Virus record (IMG/VR): IMGVR_UViG_3300030085_002462
DNA from: a virus
Reading direction: 5' to 3' (one strand)
DNA: 64,000 nucleotides
Made by a program: the position numbers and the translations under genes. Shown here one piece after another: positions 22,773-32,199 of the stretch. Position 1 is the stretch's first letter. The number at the start of each line of letters is the position of its first letter. Below the pieces are notes generated by a model that did not search any database, had not been told where the DNA came from, and worked only from the letters and a program-made list of their open reading frames with translations.

Positions 22773-23760
22773 TAGAATCCTCGAAGAAGTCTCTGACAAG
22801 GAGACCAGTTTCTTTGAAAGTCAGTTGCATTTGATAAGCAACAGGACCAAAATCATATGTTTCGTCACCACCTGCTCTAGATTGTAGAGAAGCATAATTA
22901 CCACCCTGTGCAAGATTGAGTTGCATACCACCCAACACACACTTAACAGGGAATCTCATGAGGTTTTGAAGGACTCCTCCTTTATCACCACTGTTAGGTG
23001 ATACGATTTCTTCCTGCTCTCCACTTGACTTATGTCTGACAATGCTCAAACGGAAGTAATCAGGTATAGTTAGCCACCTATTTTCACTGCCAGCTCCTGT
23101 ACCATAGGCAGGTAACATTGCTTTTCTGAGTGACTGAATAATTTCATTGATAGTGACAACATCAGATGCAGTTTTAGGTGCAAGCGTAAAATTAAATGAA
23201 TGTTGTCTAGGATCAACACCCTCAAACACCATTTCTTCGTATGGGTTGAAGATTTTCTTCTGAGTTAGTGCTGATAGACTATTAGGTGTCAGACTTGCTG
23301 ATCCACCTGTAGCACTTGCAATAGTGCTGATTGCTTGAGCACCCAGAGCAAAACCTAGTTGTGGTTTCGCTGCTTTTGCCATGGATTCAACCTTTGAGCC
23401 GAAGTCATCAGAGATACCACCAGCAGCAATCATGTCTCCTGCCAAACCAACAGCACCTGATCCCACTTCTCCAAGTGCTTGCAAGTTATATCTTGCACTA
23501 TAAGATTCAGCGAGTTGGTTAGGAAGATATAGATAAATCTCTTGTTTGATAGATCCGCCAAATCCCTTATTTCTAGATCTACCGTTTCCACCTACATAAT
23601 TATATGGATTATTGTCCTCACTCTGAGAATCGTATATATCGATCTTCAGATAATCGATCACCTCAGTCGGAAACTGCGCATCAGGTTTGATCGCCTGACG
23701 ACTGTTTGTAGACGTAGGTCCATACGGTTTGGACTTTGGAAATACCAATATTTGGCTCAT
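22765..23760 (-). CDS. gp48: Baseplate tail-tube cap gp48
   Basis: IYLYLP, NPYEEMVFEG...R.HSFNFTLAPK, P.YFRL, CVL..MQL; adjacent to gp53. Confidence 0.85.
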   Translation of the reverse strand: MSQILVFPKSKPYGPTSTNSRQAIKPDAQFPTEVIDYLKIDIYDSQSEDNNPYNYVGGNGRSRNKGFGGSIKQEIYLYLPNQLAESYSARYNLQALGEVGSGAVGLAGDMIAAGGISDDFGSKVESMAKAAKPQLGFALGAQAISTIASATGGSASLTPNSLSALTQKKIFNPYEEMVFEGVDPRQHSFNFTLAPKTASDVVTINEIIQSLRKAMLPAYGTGAGSENRWLTIPDYFRLSIVRHKSSGEQEEIVSPNSGDKGGVLQNLMRFPVKCVLGGMQLNLAQGGNYASLQSRAGGDETYDFGPVAYQMQLTFKETGLLVRDFFEDSNV

Positions 23761-24193
23761 GAGTTACTCGGGAAAGTTTAGACCTTCAAATATCTCAAAA
23801 TATAAGGGTGACCCTACCAATATTATTTATAGGTCTTTGTGGGAAAGAAAATTCATGGTTTGGTGTGATAAAAATGAAAACATCCTTGAATGGGGCAGTG
23901 AAGAGATTATTATCCCCTATGTCAGCCCTGTTGATAATCGGATTCATCGCTATTATCCCGATTTCTACGTCAGAGCAAGAACCAGGCACGGAAGGATTAA
24001 GAAGTTCATTATCGAAGTTAAACCGCTCTCGCAGACTAAAATACCCAAAAAACAAAAAAGGGTAACTAAGAAATACCTCACTGAGGTTAAAACTTATGCA
24101 GTAAATGATGCAAAATGGAAAGCAGCACGAGAATATTGTGCTGATCGCCGTATGGAATTTATGATACTCACCGAAAAAGAATTAAAGGTATGA
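23759..24193 (+). CDS. gp4: Head completion nuclease gp4
   Basis: YSGKFRP.N..KYKGDPTNIIYRSLWERKFM.WCD...WGSEE...HRYYPDF...IEVKP...NDAKWKAA. Confidence 0.93.
   Translation: MSYSGKFRPSNISKYKGDPTNIIYRSLWERKFMVWCDKNENILEWGSEEIIIPYVSPVDNRIHRYYPDFYVRARTRHGRIKKFIIEVKPLSQTKIPKKQKRVTKKYLTEVKTYAVNDAKWKAAREYCADRRMEFMILTEKELKV
23824..23831 (-). promoter_or_regulatory. Late promoter for gp48-gp53, lying inside the gp4 coding sequence
   Basis: TATAAATA on the minus strand. Confidence 0.7.
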
Positions 24194-24666: not shown

Positions 24667-25392
24667 ATGGCATATTCAGAGCCTAATGGTTTTAGGAGGT
24701 TTTATGATCTTGTAGCATCTGGTGCCAAGGAGCCATCGAGGTCTAACCTATTTTCCGTGTTTATCGGGATACCTCCTGTGCTGCGTGCTAACGAAAACTT
24801 TGATTTCAAAGAATACCAAGAAACTATCAACTATTTCGCGGATTCTGTAACTGTTCCTGGCAGGAGAATTACTACAGGTCAAGTTAGAGACGTTGGTGCA
24901 ATGCGTCGTTTTGCCACTGACACCGCTTTTGGTGATGCAGCATTCTCATTCATCCTTACAAAGGACATGTATGCACGCACATTCTTTGAAAGATGGATGA
25001 ATTACACTGCATCAGACGCAGAAAATCGTGTTACACTGTATGATCAATATACAACTAACATTATTATAAGTAAGTGGGAGTCTGGGTCAGGTGTTAAATA
25101 TAAGGACGCTTTGACTGATGCAGAGCTTCGCTTAAATAGAGTCACTGGTGTGTGGCAGATGTATGGGGCATTTCCTTATGACATGTCTGCTATGAGTTTG
25201 ACTAACGGACCCACAGATCTCATCAAGGTAGATGTTAAATTCTACTATGAGAGATATAGATTTGACACTGTATCGGAGAATATCTCCTTTGATGCAAACA
25301 AAGCTGATCGTGTTGTTAACCAATTCTCCGATGTCGCTAGGACATTGGGTATTCCTATGGCACAGTCAGATGTCGCCAGATATGGCATCTAA
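24667..25392 (+). CDS. Tail-tube-fold protein (gp54 / gp19-like tube initiator)
   Basis: RSNLFSV.I, SVTVPGR, R.FFERWMN, AFP, VKFYY; typical tube-fold pattern. Confidence 0.75.
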   Translation: MAYSEPNGFRRFYDLVASGAKEPSRSNLFSVFIGIPPVLRANENFDFKEYQETINYFADSVTVPGRRITTGQVRDVGAMRRFATDTAFGDAAFSFILTKDMYARTFFERWMNYTASDAENRVTLYDQYTTNIIISKWESGSGVKYKDALTDAELRLNRVTGVWQMYGAFPYDMSAMSLTNGPTDLIKVDVKFYYERYRFDTVSENISFDANKADRVVNQFSDVARTLGIPMAQSDVARYGI

Positions 25393-25416: not shown

Positions 25417-26121
25417 ATGCCTTTACCTAAGCTTGCAATTCCTGAATATGAATTGACACTTCCGATTACTGGTCAAAAGGTTAATTATAGACCTTTCCTT
25501 GTAAAAGAAGAGAAACTACTATATCTTGCAATGGAATCGCAAGATGAGAAACAGATGGTTAAAGCAGTTAAGACTATCATCAAAAACTGCACAAACCTGA
25601 AACAAAAAATTGAGTCACTTGCCACTTTTGAGATTGAGTATATCTTCCTTCGCATTCGCTCTAAAGCGGTTGCTGAAGTGAGTGAATTCAAAGTCACTTG
25701 CCCTGACGATGACACAACAATGGTCGAAGTACAAGTCCCTCTAGAGGAAGTTGAGCTCAACATCCCTGAAGGACACAAGCAGAAGATCATGCTCAATGAT
25801 GATATTGGTATCAAGATGAAGTATCCTTCACTGGATCTCTTTATCAACCAAAACATGAAAGATGAAGCAGATCTAGATGATATCTTTGATCTTGCTGCGC
25901 AGTGTATTGAGGCAGTATACGACACCGAAGAAATTCACACTGATTTCACGAAAGCAGAAGCAATCGAGTTTCTTGAGAATCTGAATTCTGATCAATTTGC
26001 TAAGATTCAGACATTCTTTGAAACTATGCCCAAACTGTCTTATACCTTGAATGTCAAGAATCCTAAGACAGGTGTAGATAATGAAATTAAACTTGAGGGA
26101 CTAGCGGCTTTTTTCGCCTAA
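25417..26121 (+). CDS. gp26: Baseplate hub assembly protein gp26
   Basis: MPLPKL..PEYELTLP.TG.KV.YRPFLVKEEKLL...FEIEYIFLRIRSKAV...LEGL..FF; late promoter TAAATA at 25390. Confidence 0.92.
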   Translation: MPLPKLAIPEYELTLPITGQKVNYRPFLVKEEKLLYLAMESQDEKQMVKAVKTIIKNCTNLKQKIESLATFEIEYIFLRIRSKAVAEVSEFKVTCPDDDTTMVEVQVPLEEVELNIPEGHKQKIMLNDDIGIKMKYPSLDLFINQNMKDEADLDDIFDLAAQCIEAVYDTEEIHTDFTKAEAIEFLENLNSDQFAKIQTFFETMPKLSYTLNVKNPKTGVDNEIKLEGLAAFFA

Positions 26122-26169
26122 GCCTAATGCATAATAGTCTTGAAAACTACTACAAGACTAACTTTGCAT
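26095..26169 (+). promoter_or_regulatory. Candidate -1 programmed ribosomal frameshift signal (gp26 to gp51)
   Basis: SD-like GAGGGA(26095-100), slippery T_TTT_TTC(26109-115) in the gp26 frame, and a hairpin at 26127-26169; gp51 lies in the -1 frame. Confidence 0.6.
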
Positions 26170-26312
26170 TAGTGCAGCATCACAAATACAGTCTCACAGA
26201 GATTGAAAATCTGATGCCTTGGGAAAGAGATGTATATGTGAATCTTTTATTGGCTCACCTCGCTGAAGAGGAAAGACGCCAGAAACAAGATCAATCACGA
26301 ATGTCACTTTAA
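26127..26312 (+). CDS. gp51: Baseplate hub assembly catalyst gp51 (short cyanophage form)
   Basis: LENYYKTNFALVQHHKYSLTEIENLMPWERDVYVNLL. Confidence 0.9.
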   Translation: MHNSLENYYKTNFALVQHHKYSLTEIENLMPWERDVYVNLLLAHLAEEERRQKQDQSRMSL

Positions 26313-29278
26313 TGGCAGAAGCAACTATTAGAAAGTTTGTAAAGATCAAACCAATGACGGGTAAAACCAACTTTGGTCAGTCTTTTAATGCCTTGCGCTT
26401 ATCTTTCAATAGAATTGGTAGTGGTGTAGAAGGAGTCGGACAAAACTTAAAAGAGACTACAACTCTATTAGAATTTCAGACAAAATTCTTTTCTGATAAA
26501 GGTAGAGCAGATGTAAAAGAGATTGAGGATGATGTAAAGAAAGAAGTCTCTTTGTGGTCTAGGGTTAAAAACTTTCTCAAGAAGAAGAGAGCAACAAAGA
26601 AGAGAAAGGTAGCAGAGCAAGCCTCCGAGGAAATGGCGAAGGAGGTGCCGAAAGAGGTAGAAAAAGGTAAGAAGAAAATGAAGAAACCGATGGGTTTCTT
26701 CAGTAAGTTGATGGGATTCTTAGGGACCATCTTCAAATATTTTATTGTATTTGGTGCCTTAGACTGGTTAAGTAAGAATGGCGATAAGATCGTAAAGGTC
26801 GCCAAACTATTTTGGACGATAGGCAAATTCGTCTTCAAATTGACGAGCCTTGCAATAGGCTCAATCATGGATGGACTGACCAATATCTTTGGTCGTGGAT
26901 TCAATGAGTCAGGTATTAAGAGGGGATTCCGCTTCGTAGGTGGAATACTTCAACTTGCTGGAGGCTTGATGGGTCTCCGCTATTTGATGAGACCATGGAA
27001 ACTTGTGACTGACGCAAGAATGGTCATGGGCATGTTCCAGAATTTGGGCAAACAGAATGCCGCTACAGAGCAGCGTCAGCAGGCATTCAAAAACGGGTAT
27101 ATTGATAAAGAAACGGGCAGACCTTATACTAAGCAAGAGTATGAGGCGATGCGTAAAGCCGCCAAGCGTAAAGGTAAACTTGCTGACTTTGAAGGTAGAT
27201 TTAAGAGCACACGCGGTCCACTAGGTAGAGCTAAGGACAATATAGGTCGTAGAGCTGGCAATATCTACAAAGGTGCCAAGGGTAGAATGGGTGGTGCCTT
27301 TAATAAATTCAAAGGCTCCAAGATGGGTATGCGCTCTAGTGGAGCGCTGAAAAGAATTGGTGGTGGTAGTGTTAAAGGTGGACTAGCAACTGGTGCATTC
27401 GCTGCTGTGGGTGGTATCACTCGTACAATGGCAGGTCTTGCATCTGGTGAAGCAGAAGGTAGAGCAGTTGGTGCTGGTGTAGGTCAGGCAGCTGGATCTA
27501 TTGCTGGTGCAGCAGCAGTCACTGCTATCGCACCTTTCCTAGGTCCTTTGGCACCTATGATTGGTAGTGCCATTGGTGGTTTCTTAGGTGAGAAACTTGG
27601 TGCATTTATTGGTGACACTATGCAAGGCATAGTTGAGCCACTTAAGCAGCTCTTCAGTATTAGTATGGAGGTGATAGGTGCTGCATTCAAACCTCTCTTG
27701 GATGAAGCGATGGGCTTCCTCAGTGTATTCTTTGAGGTTATTGGTGGTTTAGTTGGATTCTTGCTTGGTGGTGCATTCAAAGTTATTGCTGCGTTTACCA
27801 AGTTTGTATTTGGCACGGGATTTAAGATTATTGGTGAGACAGTTTCTCTTGTTATAAGGAATGTCAAGAGATTGATGAATCCTGGCAGTGTTGCTGCTGG
27901 TATCTTTGACTTCTTTACCTTTAACGCATTTGATGTAGATAAAGGTGGTAAAGCTGCAGGTGGTAAGGTTGATGCACCTAAGATGGCTGAGGGTGGGTAT
28001 GTAAACCTACCTCAAATCACACTCGCAAAGGTTATTGGCACAGGTATTCTAAAGACCATTAAAACGGTCATGCAGTTGCTTGGACCTTTGGGTGAAGTAA
28101 TTAGAGCAAATATTTCTGGAGAGCTTGCTAAGTTAGACGGCATCTTTAATCAATTCTCAGAGGGTGGACCATTTGATGGATCCATAGAGATGCGTGCAAG
28201 AGGTGGTTCTGTTAGGAAGAAGCGTCCTAAACAAGGTACTACCTCCGAAGACAGAATGGCAGGGGGTGAAAAATTTAAGAAACCCAAACCATATGCTAAG
28301 GGTGGAAAGATCTTCCTTCACTGGACAGGTGGCGGATATAACTTCAAATCTAAAGGTCACTACCACAGCATCATTCAGGGTGATGGTAGTGTTTATAAGG
28401 CACACCCATATGATCAGAGAACTGGTGTTGCACATACCTACCTAAGAAACAGTAGTGGTATTGGTATGAGTATCGCTGCTATGGGTGGTAATCCAGATTA
28501 CTGGAGTGTCCCTGTAAAGGATGTGCAGGTCGATGCATTGGCAAAAGAAATTGCCAACGTTGGTAAAGCATGGGGATGGAGTCCTAATGATATCAACATT
28601 AAGAATGTGATGACTCATGCTGAGGCAGCATCTGGTAAAGATGGTCTGTTGCCTAGGAATGATAACTATGGTCCTACAATGTGGGGTGGTGATGGCACAC
28701 GTTGGGACCTCTTACGTCTGAAGAAAGGTGGTAAAGACGGTGAGGGTGGTAATATCATCCGTGCTAAGGCACGCGGTTATATGGGTGGTGATTCCACTGT
28801 TAGAGAAATTGATGGTACAACCACTTCCCCTAAAACTGCAGCGACACCTGGTGCAGCAGCTCCGAGTGATAGTTCTGGGACAGATTTACCTGAGACGGAG
28901 CAGAAAGAAGAGAAGAAAGACAGCATTGCTACTAGAGTTGAGTCAATCAAAGAAGCAATTAACAAGCTCAAGGAAGCATTTGGTGGTGGATTCTCTGAGT
29001 CATTGAATCCTGCTCCACCAGCTCCTGCTCCTACTAGCACTGCATCTTCTGGTGCTGATGTCAGTATGAGTGCAACAGACACTGCAGTGAATCAACAGAT
29101 CACAGCTATGAATGTATTGAAAGAGAAAGCTCACCAGGTTGAGAAGGAAGAGCTGGAAGAATCTCTTCCAATACCTGTAATGGTCAAAGTACCTGTGGAA
29201 ATCCCGATAAATAATGGGGGCGGCGTGTCAAATAGAATCGTCGAAGTTAACACTACAAATGGAATGCTAACTAGGTAA
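26312..29278 (+). CDS. Tape-measure / gp29-like protein A with C-terminal amidase_2-like domain
   Basis: Long helical, amphipathic Gly/Ala-rich body; IFLHWTGG...HTY.RNS.GIG...VMTHAE zinc-amidase pattern at about 28300-28780. Confidence 0.7.
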   Translation: MAEATIRKFVKIKPMTGKTNFGQSFNALRLSFNRIGSGVEGVGQNLKETTTLLEFQTKFFSDKGRADVKEIEDDVKKEVSLWSRVKNFLKKKRATKKRKVAEQASEEMAKEVPKEVEKGKKKMKKPMGFFSKLMGFLGTIFKYFIVFGALDWLSKNGDKIVKVAKLFWTIGKFVFKLTSLAIGSIMDGLTNIFGRGFNESGIKRGFRFVGGILQLAGGLMGLRYLMRPWKLVTDARMVMGMFQNLGKQNAATEQRQQAFKNGYIDKETGRPYTKQEYEAMRKAAKRKGKLADFEGRFKSTRGPLGRAKDNIGRRAGNIYKGAKGRMGGAFNKFKGSKMGMRSSGALKRIGGGSVKGGLATGAFAAVGGITRTMAGLASGEAEGRAVGAGVGQAAGSIAGAAAVTAIAPFLGPLAPMIGSAIGGFLGEKLGAFIGDTMQGIVEPLKQLFSISMEVIGAAFKPLLDEAMGFLSVFFEVIGGLVGFLLGGAFKVIAAFTKFVFGTGFKIIGETVSLVIRNVKRLMNPGSVAAGIFDFFTFNAFDVDKGGKAAGGKVDAPKMAEGGYVNLPQITLAKVIGTGILKTIKTVMQLLGPLGEVIRANISGELAKLDGIFNQFSEGGPFDGSIEMRARGGSVRKKRPKQGTTSEDRMAGGEKFKKPKPYAKGGKIFLHWTGGGYNFKSKGHYHSIIQGDGSVYKAHPYDQRTGVAHTYLRNSSGIGMSIAAMGGNPDYWSVPVKDVQVDALAKEIANVGKAWGWSPNDINIKNVMTHAEAASGKDGLLPRNDNYGPTMWGGDGTRWDLLRLKKGGKDGEGGNIIRAKARGYMGGDSTVREIDGTTTSPKTAATPGAAAPSDSSGTDLPETEQKEEKKDSIATRVESIKEAINKLKEAFGGGFSESLNPAPPAPAPTSTASSGADVSMSATDTAVNQQITAMNVLKEKAHQVEKEELEESLPIPVMVKVPVEIPINNGGGVSNRIVEVNTTNGMLTR

Positions 29279-32199
29279 TGGCAGATATCCAGCAACCACA
29301 AGTAAAAGTACAGAGAGCTCGGCTCTATAAGTATGTTTCCTTCAAAGGGAAGATGACTGGTGCTGCCAAGAAATACACTCCACTTACTGCAGCAAAGAGA
29401 CTGACAGATGTAGAGAGTGATATGAGTTTGGGGATGAAGAATCTCCTAGGTGGTGTTAATAGTATTGGTGCAACACTGAATAGTGTAGCTATGACATGCG
29501 AGAATATGAATCTCGCTATCAAAGAAAGTGTTGCAGCTCAAGTATCAGCAGCTAACAATGTAACAAGAAGCAAAAAGAAAGCTGAAACTGATAAGCAAAG
29601 ATTACAGCGTAGGAAAGCTGCTGCAGATAAGAAGAAAGAGCAGGAGGCAGGCAGAGACAGCGCTGAAGATGAAGTTGAAATGACCTCTAAGGCTCATTTC
29701 CTGAATGCCATGGAGAATTTCAAGGCTGCAGGAAAGAGTGCTCTGAGTGGCATCCTAGGGACTCTAGGTAAGTTGTTTATGTGGTTAATGGGTGGATTTG
29801 TCAAATTCGCCATATTTAATTGGATCATTGAAAATCCAGGTAAAGTCCAGAAGTTAGCTAAAGGACTGTTTGCGATAGGTAAAACTATCTACAAAGTCAC
29901 CAGCTTTCTGGTTGGTATGTCATTTGATGGCATTACAAAATTCCTTGAGAATCCAATCAGTCTCAAAGGTCTCTTAGGATTTGGGCAATTCCTTATAGGG
30001 TTTGTACCTCTGTTAGGTGCATACGCATTCCTTAAGAATCCCAAGGCAATGATCTCTGGGCTCGCCAATGTGCTCAAGGGATTGATTACAGGTCTGGGTA
30101 ACTTGATGAAGGGTGGTAAACTCTTCAGCAAGATGAAGACCTTTGGTCAGAAGTTTAGACCAGGTACGAGAGCTGGAGCCATCTTGGGCTCTGTTGCAGC
30201 TGGCACAGCTGCTGCTTCACTGGTTGCAGCAGGTGGTGGTAGCACCTCTGAGGTAGTCGGTGCAGGTGTTGGTGCAGGTGCTGGTCAAGCAATCGGTGCT
30301 GCTCTGGGTGCAAAGACAGGCATACCTGGCATGGGTATGGTTGCTGGTGCTGCGGGTGGTTTCCTAGGTGGAAAGATAGGACAGTCTATCGGTGGCATGA
30401 TGGAGCCACTGGTCACTCCTATTAAAGAATTCTTCACAATGATGAAGGAGGTGTTTGATGCTGCTATCGCACCTATTAAGGATGGTTTGACTGAATTCTT
30501 TGATGCTCTGGGAGCAGTGATGGGAGGATTCATTGAATTCCTCAAGCCTCATATGCCTATGATCAAGAAGATCGTTGGCACAAGCGTTAAAGTTATATTT
30601 GCACCACTGCTATTACTGCTGAAAGGATTGACAGCAGTCCTTAAATTCTTTGCACCTAGTGGTAAAGCTGAGAAAGATAAAGAAGTCAAAGGTAAGGCTG
30701 CTGGTGGTAAGATAGTCACACCTTCAATTAGTCCACCGCCTGGTTTACCTGAGGCGGAAGAAGGTGGCACAATGACCATACCTGGTCAGATTACAGGGTG
30801 GTTTAGCCACCAAATGGAAGAAGTCAAGAAGTTACTGAGTGGATTCGGTGAGCTTCTTATGCTTCCATTCAAAGCAATCGCCAATGGTTTAGCTGGTGCA
30901 GTTGGTGATATGGTCGGCAATATTCCTATTGTTGGTGGTCTAATCAAAGGCGCTGGTAATTTACTAGGCAACGTATTCGGTTGGAATAAAGGAAGGGCAG
31001 CAGGTGGATGGATCCAAGGTCCGAAGTCAGGTTATCCTGTGTCCCTTGATGGTGGTAGATCTGTATCTTTCATTGGTCATGGCACAGAATGGGTGGGGTA
31101 TAAAAAGGCGGCTGCTGGTGGTGCCTTTGTTGTCCCATTTGATACTCCTGCAACTGACAGAAATCATGGACTCACCTCCCTAAGATGGAGAGAGGCCGCG
31201 GCGGGTGGTTATCAACTACCACAATTCTCTGGTGGTGGTGAGTTTGATGCAGTCTTAGATCTCATCGCTAAGTATGAGTCGGGCTCAGGTGGATATGAGG
31301 CAATGTATCCAAGCACTGTGCTCAAGGGTGCCACTAAGATGACTATCTCAGAGGTTGCTCGTAAGGCAACTGGTGCAGTGGGTATGTATCAAAACATGCC
31401 TGAATTCTTGGTAAGTAGAGCTCGCGCAGTTGGGCTGAATCCTGCTAGAGCTAAGTATAATAAGTCAAACCAGAGAAAGATCGCTAAGTATCTCATCGGT
31501 AAGGGTCAAGCAGGTGTGACTCCTCAGATGATGAAGGATGATCCTGATGAGGCAATGATCAGACTGTCTAAAGTCTGGGCTGCAATCCCTGTGCCTAAGG
31601 ATATGCAGGGACATAAAAAGATGCTTAAGAAAGGTGAGTCATATTATGCAGGTGTAGGTAGCAATAAAGCACACATCACCCCTGAGATGATGTATAAGGC
31701 GATGGCATCAACAGGTAGTGCCACTGCAACAGATACATCCACTGGTGATACGACACCAGCCTATGAGAAGAATCGTAAAAAGAATAATGAGAGTAAGAGC
31801 TCAGGATCAGACAGCTCAGGAGAAGACAAGAAAACAGAAGGTAAGTCACCTATTGATAGACTGAAAGAGTCCTTCAATCTACTGAAGGAAGCATTCAGCC
31901 CAGACATGGTGAGCTCACTTAAACCTAGCGCTACTGCTGGATCTACTATTGATAGTAAAGAGCAGGACCGTAAAGAAAATAAGGCAAACGCTATTAAACA
32001 GAGAGCTGAAGAAATTCAGGCATACCAACAGGCAAGCAGTCAAGCAATCGGTGCAGTGCAGAAACAAGGTGCAGCTGCAGGTGACACAGAGGTCCTTAGT
32101 TTCCTACCTGGTAAGGATAAATATGACGTAGATGATTTCTTCCAGCCTAAGTTTGGGTTGGTTGCTGATTCCAATACGGAAGCGTTTAACTTGATGTAA
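29278..32199 (+). CDS. Tape-measure / gp29-like protein B with lambda-lysozyme-like domain
   Basis: Paralogous architecture to protein A; VLDLIAKYESG.GGYEAMY...TKMTISEV...AVGMYQ...LSKVWAAIP at about 31240-31710. Confidence 0.7.
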   Translation: MADIQQPQVKVQRARLYKYVSFKGKMTGAAKKYTPLTAAKRLTDVESDMSLGMKNLLGGVNSIGATLNSVAMTCENMNLAIKESVAAQVSAANNVTRSKKKAETDKQRLQRRKAAADKKKEQEAGRDSAEDEVEMTSKAHFLNAMENFKAAGKSALSGILGTLGKLFMWLMGGFVKFAIFNWIIENPGKVQKLAKGLFAIGKTIYKVTSFLVGMSFDGITKFLENPISLKGLLGFGQFLIGFVPLLGAYAFLKNPKAMISGLANVLKGLITGLGNLMKGGKLFSKMKTFGQKFRPGTRAGAILGSVAAGTAAASLVAAGGGSTSEVVGAGVGAGAGQAIGAALGAKTGIPGMGMVAGAAGGFLGGKIGQSIGGMMEPLVTPIKEFFTMMKEVFDAAIAPIKDGLTEFFDALGAVMGGFIEFLKPHMPMIKKIVGTSVKVIFAPLLLLLKGLTAVLKFFAPSGKAEKDKEVKGKAAGGKIVTPSISPPPGLPEAEEGGTMTIPGQITGWFSHQMEEVKKLLSGFGELLMLPFKAIANGLAGAVGDMVGNIPIVGGLIKGAGNLLGNVFGWNKGRAAGGWIQGPKSGYPVSLDGGRSVSFIGHGTEWVGYKKAAAGGAFVVPFDTPATDRNHGLTSLRWREAAAGGYQLPQFSGGGEFDAVLDLIAKYESGSGGYEAMYPSTVLKGATKMTISEVARKATGAVGMYQNMPEFLVSRARAVGLNPARAKYNKSNQRKIAKYLIGKGQAGVTPQMMKDDPDEAMIRLSKVWAAIPVPKDMQGHKKMLKKGESYYAGVGSNKAHITPEMMYKAMASTGSATATDTSTGDTTPAYEKNRKKNNESKSSGSDSSGEDKKTEGKSPIDRLKESFNLLKEAFSPDMVSSLKPSATAGSTIDSKEQDRKENKANAIKQRAEEIQAYQQASSQAIGAVQKQGAAAGDTEVLSFLPGKDKYDVDDFFQPKFGLVADSNTEAFNLM

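Follow-up and report, generated by a model that had tools for sequence, protein, structure and literature searches.

A conserved signal for predicted −1 ribosomal frameshifting at the gp26–gp51 junction of a T4-like virus

In the 64,000-nucleotide stretch of virus DNA analysed here (the window, from IMG/VR record IMGVR_UViG_3300030085_002462), the gene for gp26 is followed at once by a short gp51-like open reading frame in the −1 frame, and the locus raises the question of whether these are two genes or a single gene read in two ways. The window is part of a complete 186-kb virus record, and its nearest isolate is cyanophage P-TIM40, with a gp26 identity of 68.6%. A sequence-only reading of the DNA had proposed a −1 frameshift that joins gp26 to gp51. 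That proposal is supported by a junction that is invariant in 67 distinct relatives, by 33 of 62 aligned junctions in which the gp51-like frame is start-less, and by a fusion product that is collinear with T4 gp51. Judged from this comparative evidence, it is highly probable that the locus gives rise to two tail assembly chaperones, one short and one long, through conserved programmed −1 frameshifting by the ribosome.

Signal elements in the gp26–gp51 overlap

The gp26 gene (25417–26121, + strand; 0 frame) encodes 234 amino acids and would be the short chaperone form, TAC-N. In profile searches the protein matches PF12322 (T4_baseplate) with an E of 7.7e-69 over profile positions 2–219 of 219, and hence is a full-length family member; it also matches phrog_150 (E 2.2e-74). 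The 3′ end of the gene reads GAG GGA CTA GCG GCT TTT TTC GCC TAA. The T_TTT_TTC in this sequence (26109–26115, + strand) is a slippery heptamer of the type X_XXY_YYZ in the phase of gp26, and the 0-frame stop TAA (26119–26121, + strand) follows one codon later. Translation of the −1 frame shows a TGA at 26094–26096 (+ strand); from 26097 on, the frame is free of stops, past the ATG at 26127, until it ends at 26310–26312. A productive frame change is thus confined to the eight codons of usable overlap (26097–26121), because the TGA closes the −1 frame upstream. The −1 extension that begins at the heptamer (26115–26312, + strand; 65 amino acids plus stop) would supply the long form, TAC-NC, with its gp51-like C-terminal domain, and the predicted fusion has 233 + 65 = 298 residues. 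On re-translation the coordinates, the −1 phase and the open frame given in the sequence-only reading all hold, and our recomputed length agrees with its figure of about 298 residues. The motif TTTTTTY occurs 16 times on the two strands of the 64-kb window, as compared with 27 ± 7.6 times in shuffled sequences (at least 16 in 96 of 100 shuffles), and we estimate that an in-phase TTTTTTY would fall inside the eight-codon overlap by chance about 1 time in 1000.

We gathered 74 corresponding loci from viral contigs, together with those of 10 named cyanophages and seven T4-like phages of other hosts. In all 67 distinct junctions with the heptamer, which extend down to a gp26 identity of 25%, T_TTT_TTY keeps its phase and is separated from the stop of gp26 by 0 to 2 codons; the gp51-like frame is without exception −1 and open. 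These junctions come from cyanophages and from Sinorhizobium phage phiM7, Cronobacter phage S13, Stenotrophomonas phage BUCT608, Aeromonas phage Aeh1, Agrobacterium phage Atu_ph04 and a KVP40-like vibriophage. The slippery heptamer in the correct phase and the open −1 frame into gp51, both claimed from the window's letters, are therefore invariant features of the 67 junctions, among which we found neither random frame offsets nor stops in the −1 frame. The −1 frame of several relatives begins only at the heptamer itself (TGA TTT TTT); with nowhere else left for a productive shift, the site is fixed there.

The conservation of the heptamer extends to bases that the encoded protein leaves free. 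The codon preceding it is AGT, TCT, GAT, AAT, GCT or ACT among the 67 junctions, six codons for four amino acids with T as their common last base, and for the first Phe all of them (67/67) use TTT. Elsewhere in the gp26 genes, T occupies 56% of such third positions and TTT accounts for 65% of Phe codons. Against this background codon usage, the invariant T and TTT have a P of about 1e-10 when 15 clusters at 50% identity are taken as independent. The pattern indicates that the constraint at the slip site is on nucleotides, at synonymous sites, and not only on the Phe-Phe motif.

Three of the gathered loci lie outside the 67. Vibrio phage K452 (L086 2100–2303) is the sole sampled relative without the heptamer; its gp26 frame ends ...ACG CTT TTT GCG TAA, and its downstream ORF has its own ATG ATG overlapping the stop of the upstream ORF. 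The K452 lineage may use ordinary coupled initiation instead of frameshifting. In the metagenomic contig L074 (1501–2365) the gp26 frame ends early, at 1956, and the gp51-like part is +1 relative to the gp26 start, probably the result of an assembly indel inside gp26. The third, L068, ends before any gp26 stop.

Downstream of the heptamer, the window can form a two-tier stem-loop (26122–26175, + strand), with an outer stem of 26122–26131 paired to 26165–26175, an inner stem of 26135–26142 paired to 26153–26160, and the ATG at 26127 inside. Its minimum free energy is −21.6 kcal/mol (z −3.67), and none of 200 shuffles is equally stable. The locus thus has both elements of a canonical −1 frameshift cassette, an in-phase X_XXY_YYZ and a stable structure within 5 to 9 nt downstream. 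The sequence-only reading had described a hairpin that starts 11 nt after the heptamer. The hairpin is real, stable and kept within the clade, but it is larger than described, and the spacer is 6 nt rather than 11 because the outer stem begins at 26122. It is retained in the seven closest lineages; the window's clade takes in two metagenomic relatives (L008 and L009), P-TIM40, S-WAM1, S-SZBM1 and P-RSM6. Within this clade, the stem stands 5 to 8 nt past the run and carries compensatory changes such as TTG/CAA to TTA/TAA.

Across the family, the signal from structure is weaker. When the window's hairpin is imposed on the 62 aligned junctions, 55.1% of cells are paired as compared with 51.3% in shuffles and 28–41% in slid controls. 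The covariation score is 0.194, a value reached by 1 of 500 shuffles, versus 0.160 in shuffles. This support is modest, and one member of the tested alignment had supplied the structure. The covariation that the earlier reading suggested looking for is therefore found as compensatory changes in the clade and only modestly family-wide. Folding of the 75 nt past the heptamer in each sequence gave a median z of −1.8, with about half of the sequences near 0 (mononucleotide shuffles). We also tried an alternative stem that pairs alignment columns 11–23 with 62–74; it looks convincing in one distant clade (for instance in L052, L056 and L062) and has no excess of pairing or covariation over shuffles in the 62. 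The downstream structure looks lineage-specific, because about half of the relatives fold no better than shuffled sequences and the second register is not significant family-wide. Hence, the alignments support the hairpin for the window's clade, and not as a universal feature of the family.

A further, rather doubtful suggestion is that stem-loops that differ by lineage reuse the same 5′ arm, formed by the L-x-H codons, with different 3′ partners, that the window's stem-loop also buries a vestigial ATG, and that published work on T4-like chaperones neither treats the Kyanoviridae in detail nor describes this arrangement. Should it be correct, the cyanophages would offer a natural series on the turnover of a stimulator with a fixed heptamer, and 'gp51' would have to be re-annotated systematically across several hundred genomes.

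The SD-like GAGGGA (26095–26100, + strand) lies 8 nt before the heptamer and forms the Glu-Gly codons of a conserved LEGL. Its GG is present in 66 of the 67 junctions, and Glu is spelled GAG in 36 and GAA in 27. The element is thus present as the sequence-only reading stated, but we see no sign of selection for an SD, because the free third base varies between G and A and the conservation equals that of the Glu-Gly residues. The stimulatory role ascribed to it is unsupported by the alignment.

The gp51-like domain and its T4 counterparts

The ATG that gene callers take as the start of gp51 (26127–26129, + strand) would give a 61-residue product (26127–26312, + strand) in the −1 frame relative to gp26. 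An ATG is found at this place in 11 of the 62 aligned junctions. In 33 of the 62 there is no ATG, GTG or TTG between the heptamer and a conserved His codon, and in many junctions the earliest possible start falls about 20 codons into the conserved domain. The conserved block that these 33 junctions reach without a start codon has the pattern L.H..L..YY..NF. Furthermore, the residues encoded between the heptamer and the ATG position (FF-R/L/Y-hydrophobic-x-L) are conserved and align with T4 gp51. Inspection of the sequence found no SD upstream of the ATG at 26127, and the ATG is buried in the hairpin; both points agree with what had been noted earlier for this codon. These comparisons support the view that the gp51-like ORF is not a stand-alone gene, and the ATG at 26127 is probably an internal Met codon.

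In profile searches, the −1 extension matches phrog_634 (E 2.4e-29) and also positions 240–276 of 282 of phrog_150, while the gp51-like ORF matches the PHROG 'baseplate hub assembly catalyst' in its C-terminal half only (positions 61–120 of 121). A search of NCBIfam found no family for gp26, for the gp51 stub or for either of the large downstream proteins. The stub is unannotated in S-WAM1, S-CAM8, ACG-2014d, Cronobacter phage S13 and Aeh1. We also noticed that the gp26 homologue of Vibrio phage TCU-VP03-AIR1 (L085 1474–2322) is mislabelled 'deoxynucleotide monophosphate kinase'.

T4 gp26 and gp51 are listed among the chaperones of hub assembly, and the particle itself lacks gp51 (PMC3004832). 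PF12322 matches residues 1–201 of T4 gp51 (249 amino acids) with an E of 3.9e-52, and T4 gp26 matches the same profile. From the slip-site Phe on, the window's −1 product aligns with residues 200–244 of T4 gp51 (E 2e-5), and phrog_150 spans T4 gp51 end to end. Because PF12322 covers residues 1–201, residues 200–244 align past the slip site and phrog_150 covers the whole, we assign the predicted 298-residue fusion as the orthologue of full-length T4 gp51 and gp26 as the short form. In a BLASTP comparison of T4 gp51 with the window's gp26 the match was not significant (E 0.3); the kinship is visible only via the shared Pfam and PHROG profiles.

In T4, genes 26 and 51 are separate and divergent, on opposite strands, and gp51 is a naturally fused form. 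T4 therefore serves as a natural control. Its gp26 (L079 2803–3429, minus strand) ends ...GLKEFFELL, so that the Phe-Phe motif is retained, but the codons GAG TTC TTT do not make a slippery site. Two Phe residues can hence be encoded here with no need for slippery bases. An internal in-frame product, 26′, is annotated in T4 gene 26.

Fold and gene neighbourhood of gp26

We modelled gp26 with AlphaFold (AF2) from a 40-sequence alignment (mean pLDDT 85.9) and searched the model against 48,161 representative PDB chains. The best match, with 84 residues aligned at an rmsd of 3.9 and a Z of 7.4, is the tail assembly chaperone of HK97 (2ob9). Next come 3fgx (Z 7.3) and YqbN of B. subtilis (3klu, Z 7.0), a prophage XkdN-type chaperone; the scores then drop to Z 4.9. 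All three matches cover gp26 residues 1–95, at Z values below 8 that call for caution according to the aligner's notes. In Foldseek, too, 2ob9 has the top rank, though with weak significance (E 0.4), and no PDB sequence fell below an E of 0.09 in a profile search with gp26. Each Z is modest and the ranking is specific, and the model supports a chaperone-like fold of the gp26 N-terminal domain. The earlier reading of the locus as a G/GT-like chaperone pair is well supported, with the HK97 chaperone as top structural match. At 234 residues, gp26 is larger than the classical tail assembly chaperones and has extra domains past residue 95.

Immediately upstream of gp26 lies a gp54-like gene with a tube fold (24667–25392, + strand; 241 aa), as the sequence-only reading had it; the protein matches phrog_45 'tail tube' (E 8e-42) and PF23849 Phage_TTP_2 (E 7.7e-7). 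Its homologue is annotated as gp54 in Aeh1 and S13. The C-terminal domain of the long form has at least four plausible partners: gp19, the gp54-like protein, gp48 and gp27. Further upstream, a gp4-like head closure protein (23729–24193; phrog_218, E 3.5e-63) also matches PF08722, the TnsA-like endonuclease N-terminal domain (E 3.9e-22).

Downstream, two adjacent paralogues of about 980 residues (988 and 973) fill positions 26312–32199; one has an Amidase_2 domain, and their PHROG names are of lysin type. The 988-residue protein (26312–29278, + strand), a candidate tape measure, matches PF01510 Amidase_2 (E 3.4e-6) and the PHROG families 'endolysin' and 'tail associated lysin'. Searches of PHROG, Pfam and NCBIfam found no match of either protein to tape measure families, including phrog_1283, the T4 gp29 family. 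Cyanophage S-CREM2, whose tail measures 418 nm, has two very large 'endolysins' among its virion proteins, detected by 73 and 71 peptides (PMC10665884). The two paralogues in the window may be tape measures with lysin domains.

Proposed mechanism, alternatives and known systems

We propose that most ribosomes that translate gp26 terminate at the TAA at 26119 and release the 234-residue short form. A minority would slip back by one base with two tRNA-Phe on UUU_UUC within U_UUU_UUC, both of which would re-pair on UUU UUU. The shifted ribosomes would read CGC CUA AGC CUA AUG and continue to 26312, giving a 298-residue long form made of gp26 residues 1–233 and the 65-residue gp51-like domain. Both the slippage and its efficiency are inferred here. 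Ribosomes on the heptamer are probably paused by the stem-loop 6 nt further on, which would in this way stimulate the shift. The long form is expected to yield the junction peptides ...GLAAFFR and LSLMHNSLENYYK. The short and long products would correspond to TAC-N and TAC-NC, as counterparts of T4 gp26 and gp51 and as functional equivalents of lambda G/GT and P2 E/E+E′.

Three other accounts of the locus have to be weighed. RNA polymerase could insert an extra U in the T6 run, so that in-frame fusion transcripts, rather than slipping ribosomes, supply the long form. The site is indeed a homopolymer, of six T in the window and of seven to eight in relatives; efficient polymerase slippage, however, is known at runs of about 9 or more, a length that the T6 does not attain, and many relatives have exactly T6 followed by C. 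The locking of the heptamer to the X_XXY_YYZ phase in 67 of 67 junctions and the stem 5 to 8 nt further on in the clade count against polymerase slippage, because these are features relevant to ribosomes and not to the polymerase. Among contigs from RNA libraries, one metatranscriptome contig, X15, spans 25700–26500 without indels, and those of the other RNA runs leave the heptamer uncovered; X15 speaks neither for nor against transcriptional slippage, because contigs drop rare variants and may derive from DNA. We regard this account as very unlikely. It is marginally less credible still that gp51 is a separate small gene expressed from the ATG at 26127, by independent initiation or by reinitiation after the TAA at 26119, with no fusion made. 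A free 61-residue product of termination-reinitiation is conceivable because the ATG lies 5 nt past the gp26 stop, and several GenBank records annotate a stand-alone ORF here as 'baseplate hub assembly catalyst'. Against this stand the rarity of the ATG (11/62) and the 33 junctions of 62 without ATG, GTG or TTG before the conserved block, the conserved residues upstream of the ATG that align with T4 gp51, the lack of an SD, and the position of the ATG inside a stem of −21.6 kcal/mol. A separate gene would also leave the invariant synonymous T and TTT unexplained.

The least probable account, to which we give hardly any weight, holds that the heptamer merely follows from a conserved Phe-Phe in the protein and that the −1 ORF is what is left of gene 51, without function. 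The motif is conserved even in T4 gp26, where no frameshift is needed. T4, however, spells it TTC TTT after GAG, the wobble T of the window's relatives is invariant over six different preceding codons, and the −1 ORF is conserved as a protein down to T4 gp51. Programmed ribosomal frameshifting at the heptamer thus remains our preferred explanation of the junction.

The principle of this arrangement is already in print for T4-like phages. Our literature search on the gp26/gp51 frameshift, the cyanophage hub and the gp51 chaperone found no paper on the window's own locus. As cited in PMC10885494 and PMC12846349, Vladimirov, Gautam and Davidson (Virology 2022;566:9–15; doi 10.1016/j.virol.2021.11.003) identified gp26 and gp51 as the short and long chaperones of T4-like phages. 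Poly-T slip sites in the short-form genes of these phages are credited to the same work in PMC12846349. According to the PRFect paper (PMC10885494), some T4-like phages do without frameshifting and encode the short chaperone and the fused long one in separate genes. The remark in the sequence-only reading that this was not known to be described for T4-like cyanophages is, in the light of these papers, very likely wrong. With the same layout described in T4-like phages as early as 2022, the present analysis is of value mainly for correcting genome annotation. The 'gp51, baseplate hub assembly catalyst' of most cyanophage genomes on deposit is a start-less stub that is called separately, or it is unannotated. 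The correct product would be the 298-residue frameshift fusion, the counterpart of full-length T4 gp51, and its entry would fix the annotation. The fusion would also explain the apparent gene 51 fragment in T4-like phages other than the T-even phages. With it, the T4-like phages would conform to what holds for long-tailed phages in general, in which a single locus provides both the short and the long tail chaperone.

Among known systems, the closest is that of T4 itself, whose gp26 and gp51 belong to the same protein family as the window's products. The window's predicted long form is collinear with T4 gp51, with a gp26-like domain followed by a C-terminal domain of roughly 50 residues. The genomes differ in that T4 has two separate genes and has lost the slippery bases, whereas both forms are predicted to come from one locus in the window phage.

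In lambda, gpG and gpGT reportedly arise by a −1 shift in the last few codons of the short ORF, which gives a minor long form with a common N-terminus (Levin et al. 1993; Xu, Hendrix and Duda 2004). The window's locus resembles the lambda pair in its place after a tube-fold gene and before large, putative tail proteins, and in the HK97-chaperone-like fold predicted for gp26. It differs from it in the heptamer (G_GGA_AAG in lambda, T_TTT_TTC in the window), and the two have no detectable sequence similarity. Compared with the lambda proteins, the 234-residue gp26 has extra domains and belongs to a contractile-tailed T4-like virus, in which the chaperones would act at hub assembly. For the myovirus P2, the chaperone pair gpE and gpE+E′ is reported to depend on a −1 shift at T_TTT_TTG, and its locus directly precedes that of the tape measure (Christie et al. 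2002). Here the likeness lies in the myovirus setting and the T-run heptamer, but the P2 proteins are far smaller and unrelated at the sequence level.

The E. coli dnaX gene, which encodes tau and gamma, offers a parallel in the layout of the signal. It too combines an SD-like element, a heptamer and, after a spacer of 6 nt, a stem-loop. In dnaX, the upstream SD is a proven stimulator and the shifted frame terminates at once. In the window, by contrast, the GAGGGA shows no constraint beyond Glu-Gly, and the shift is predicted to add a whole 65-residue domain.
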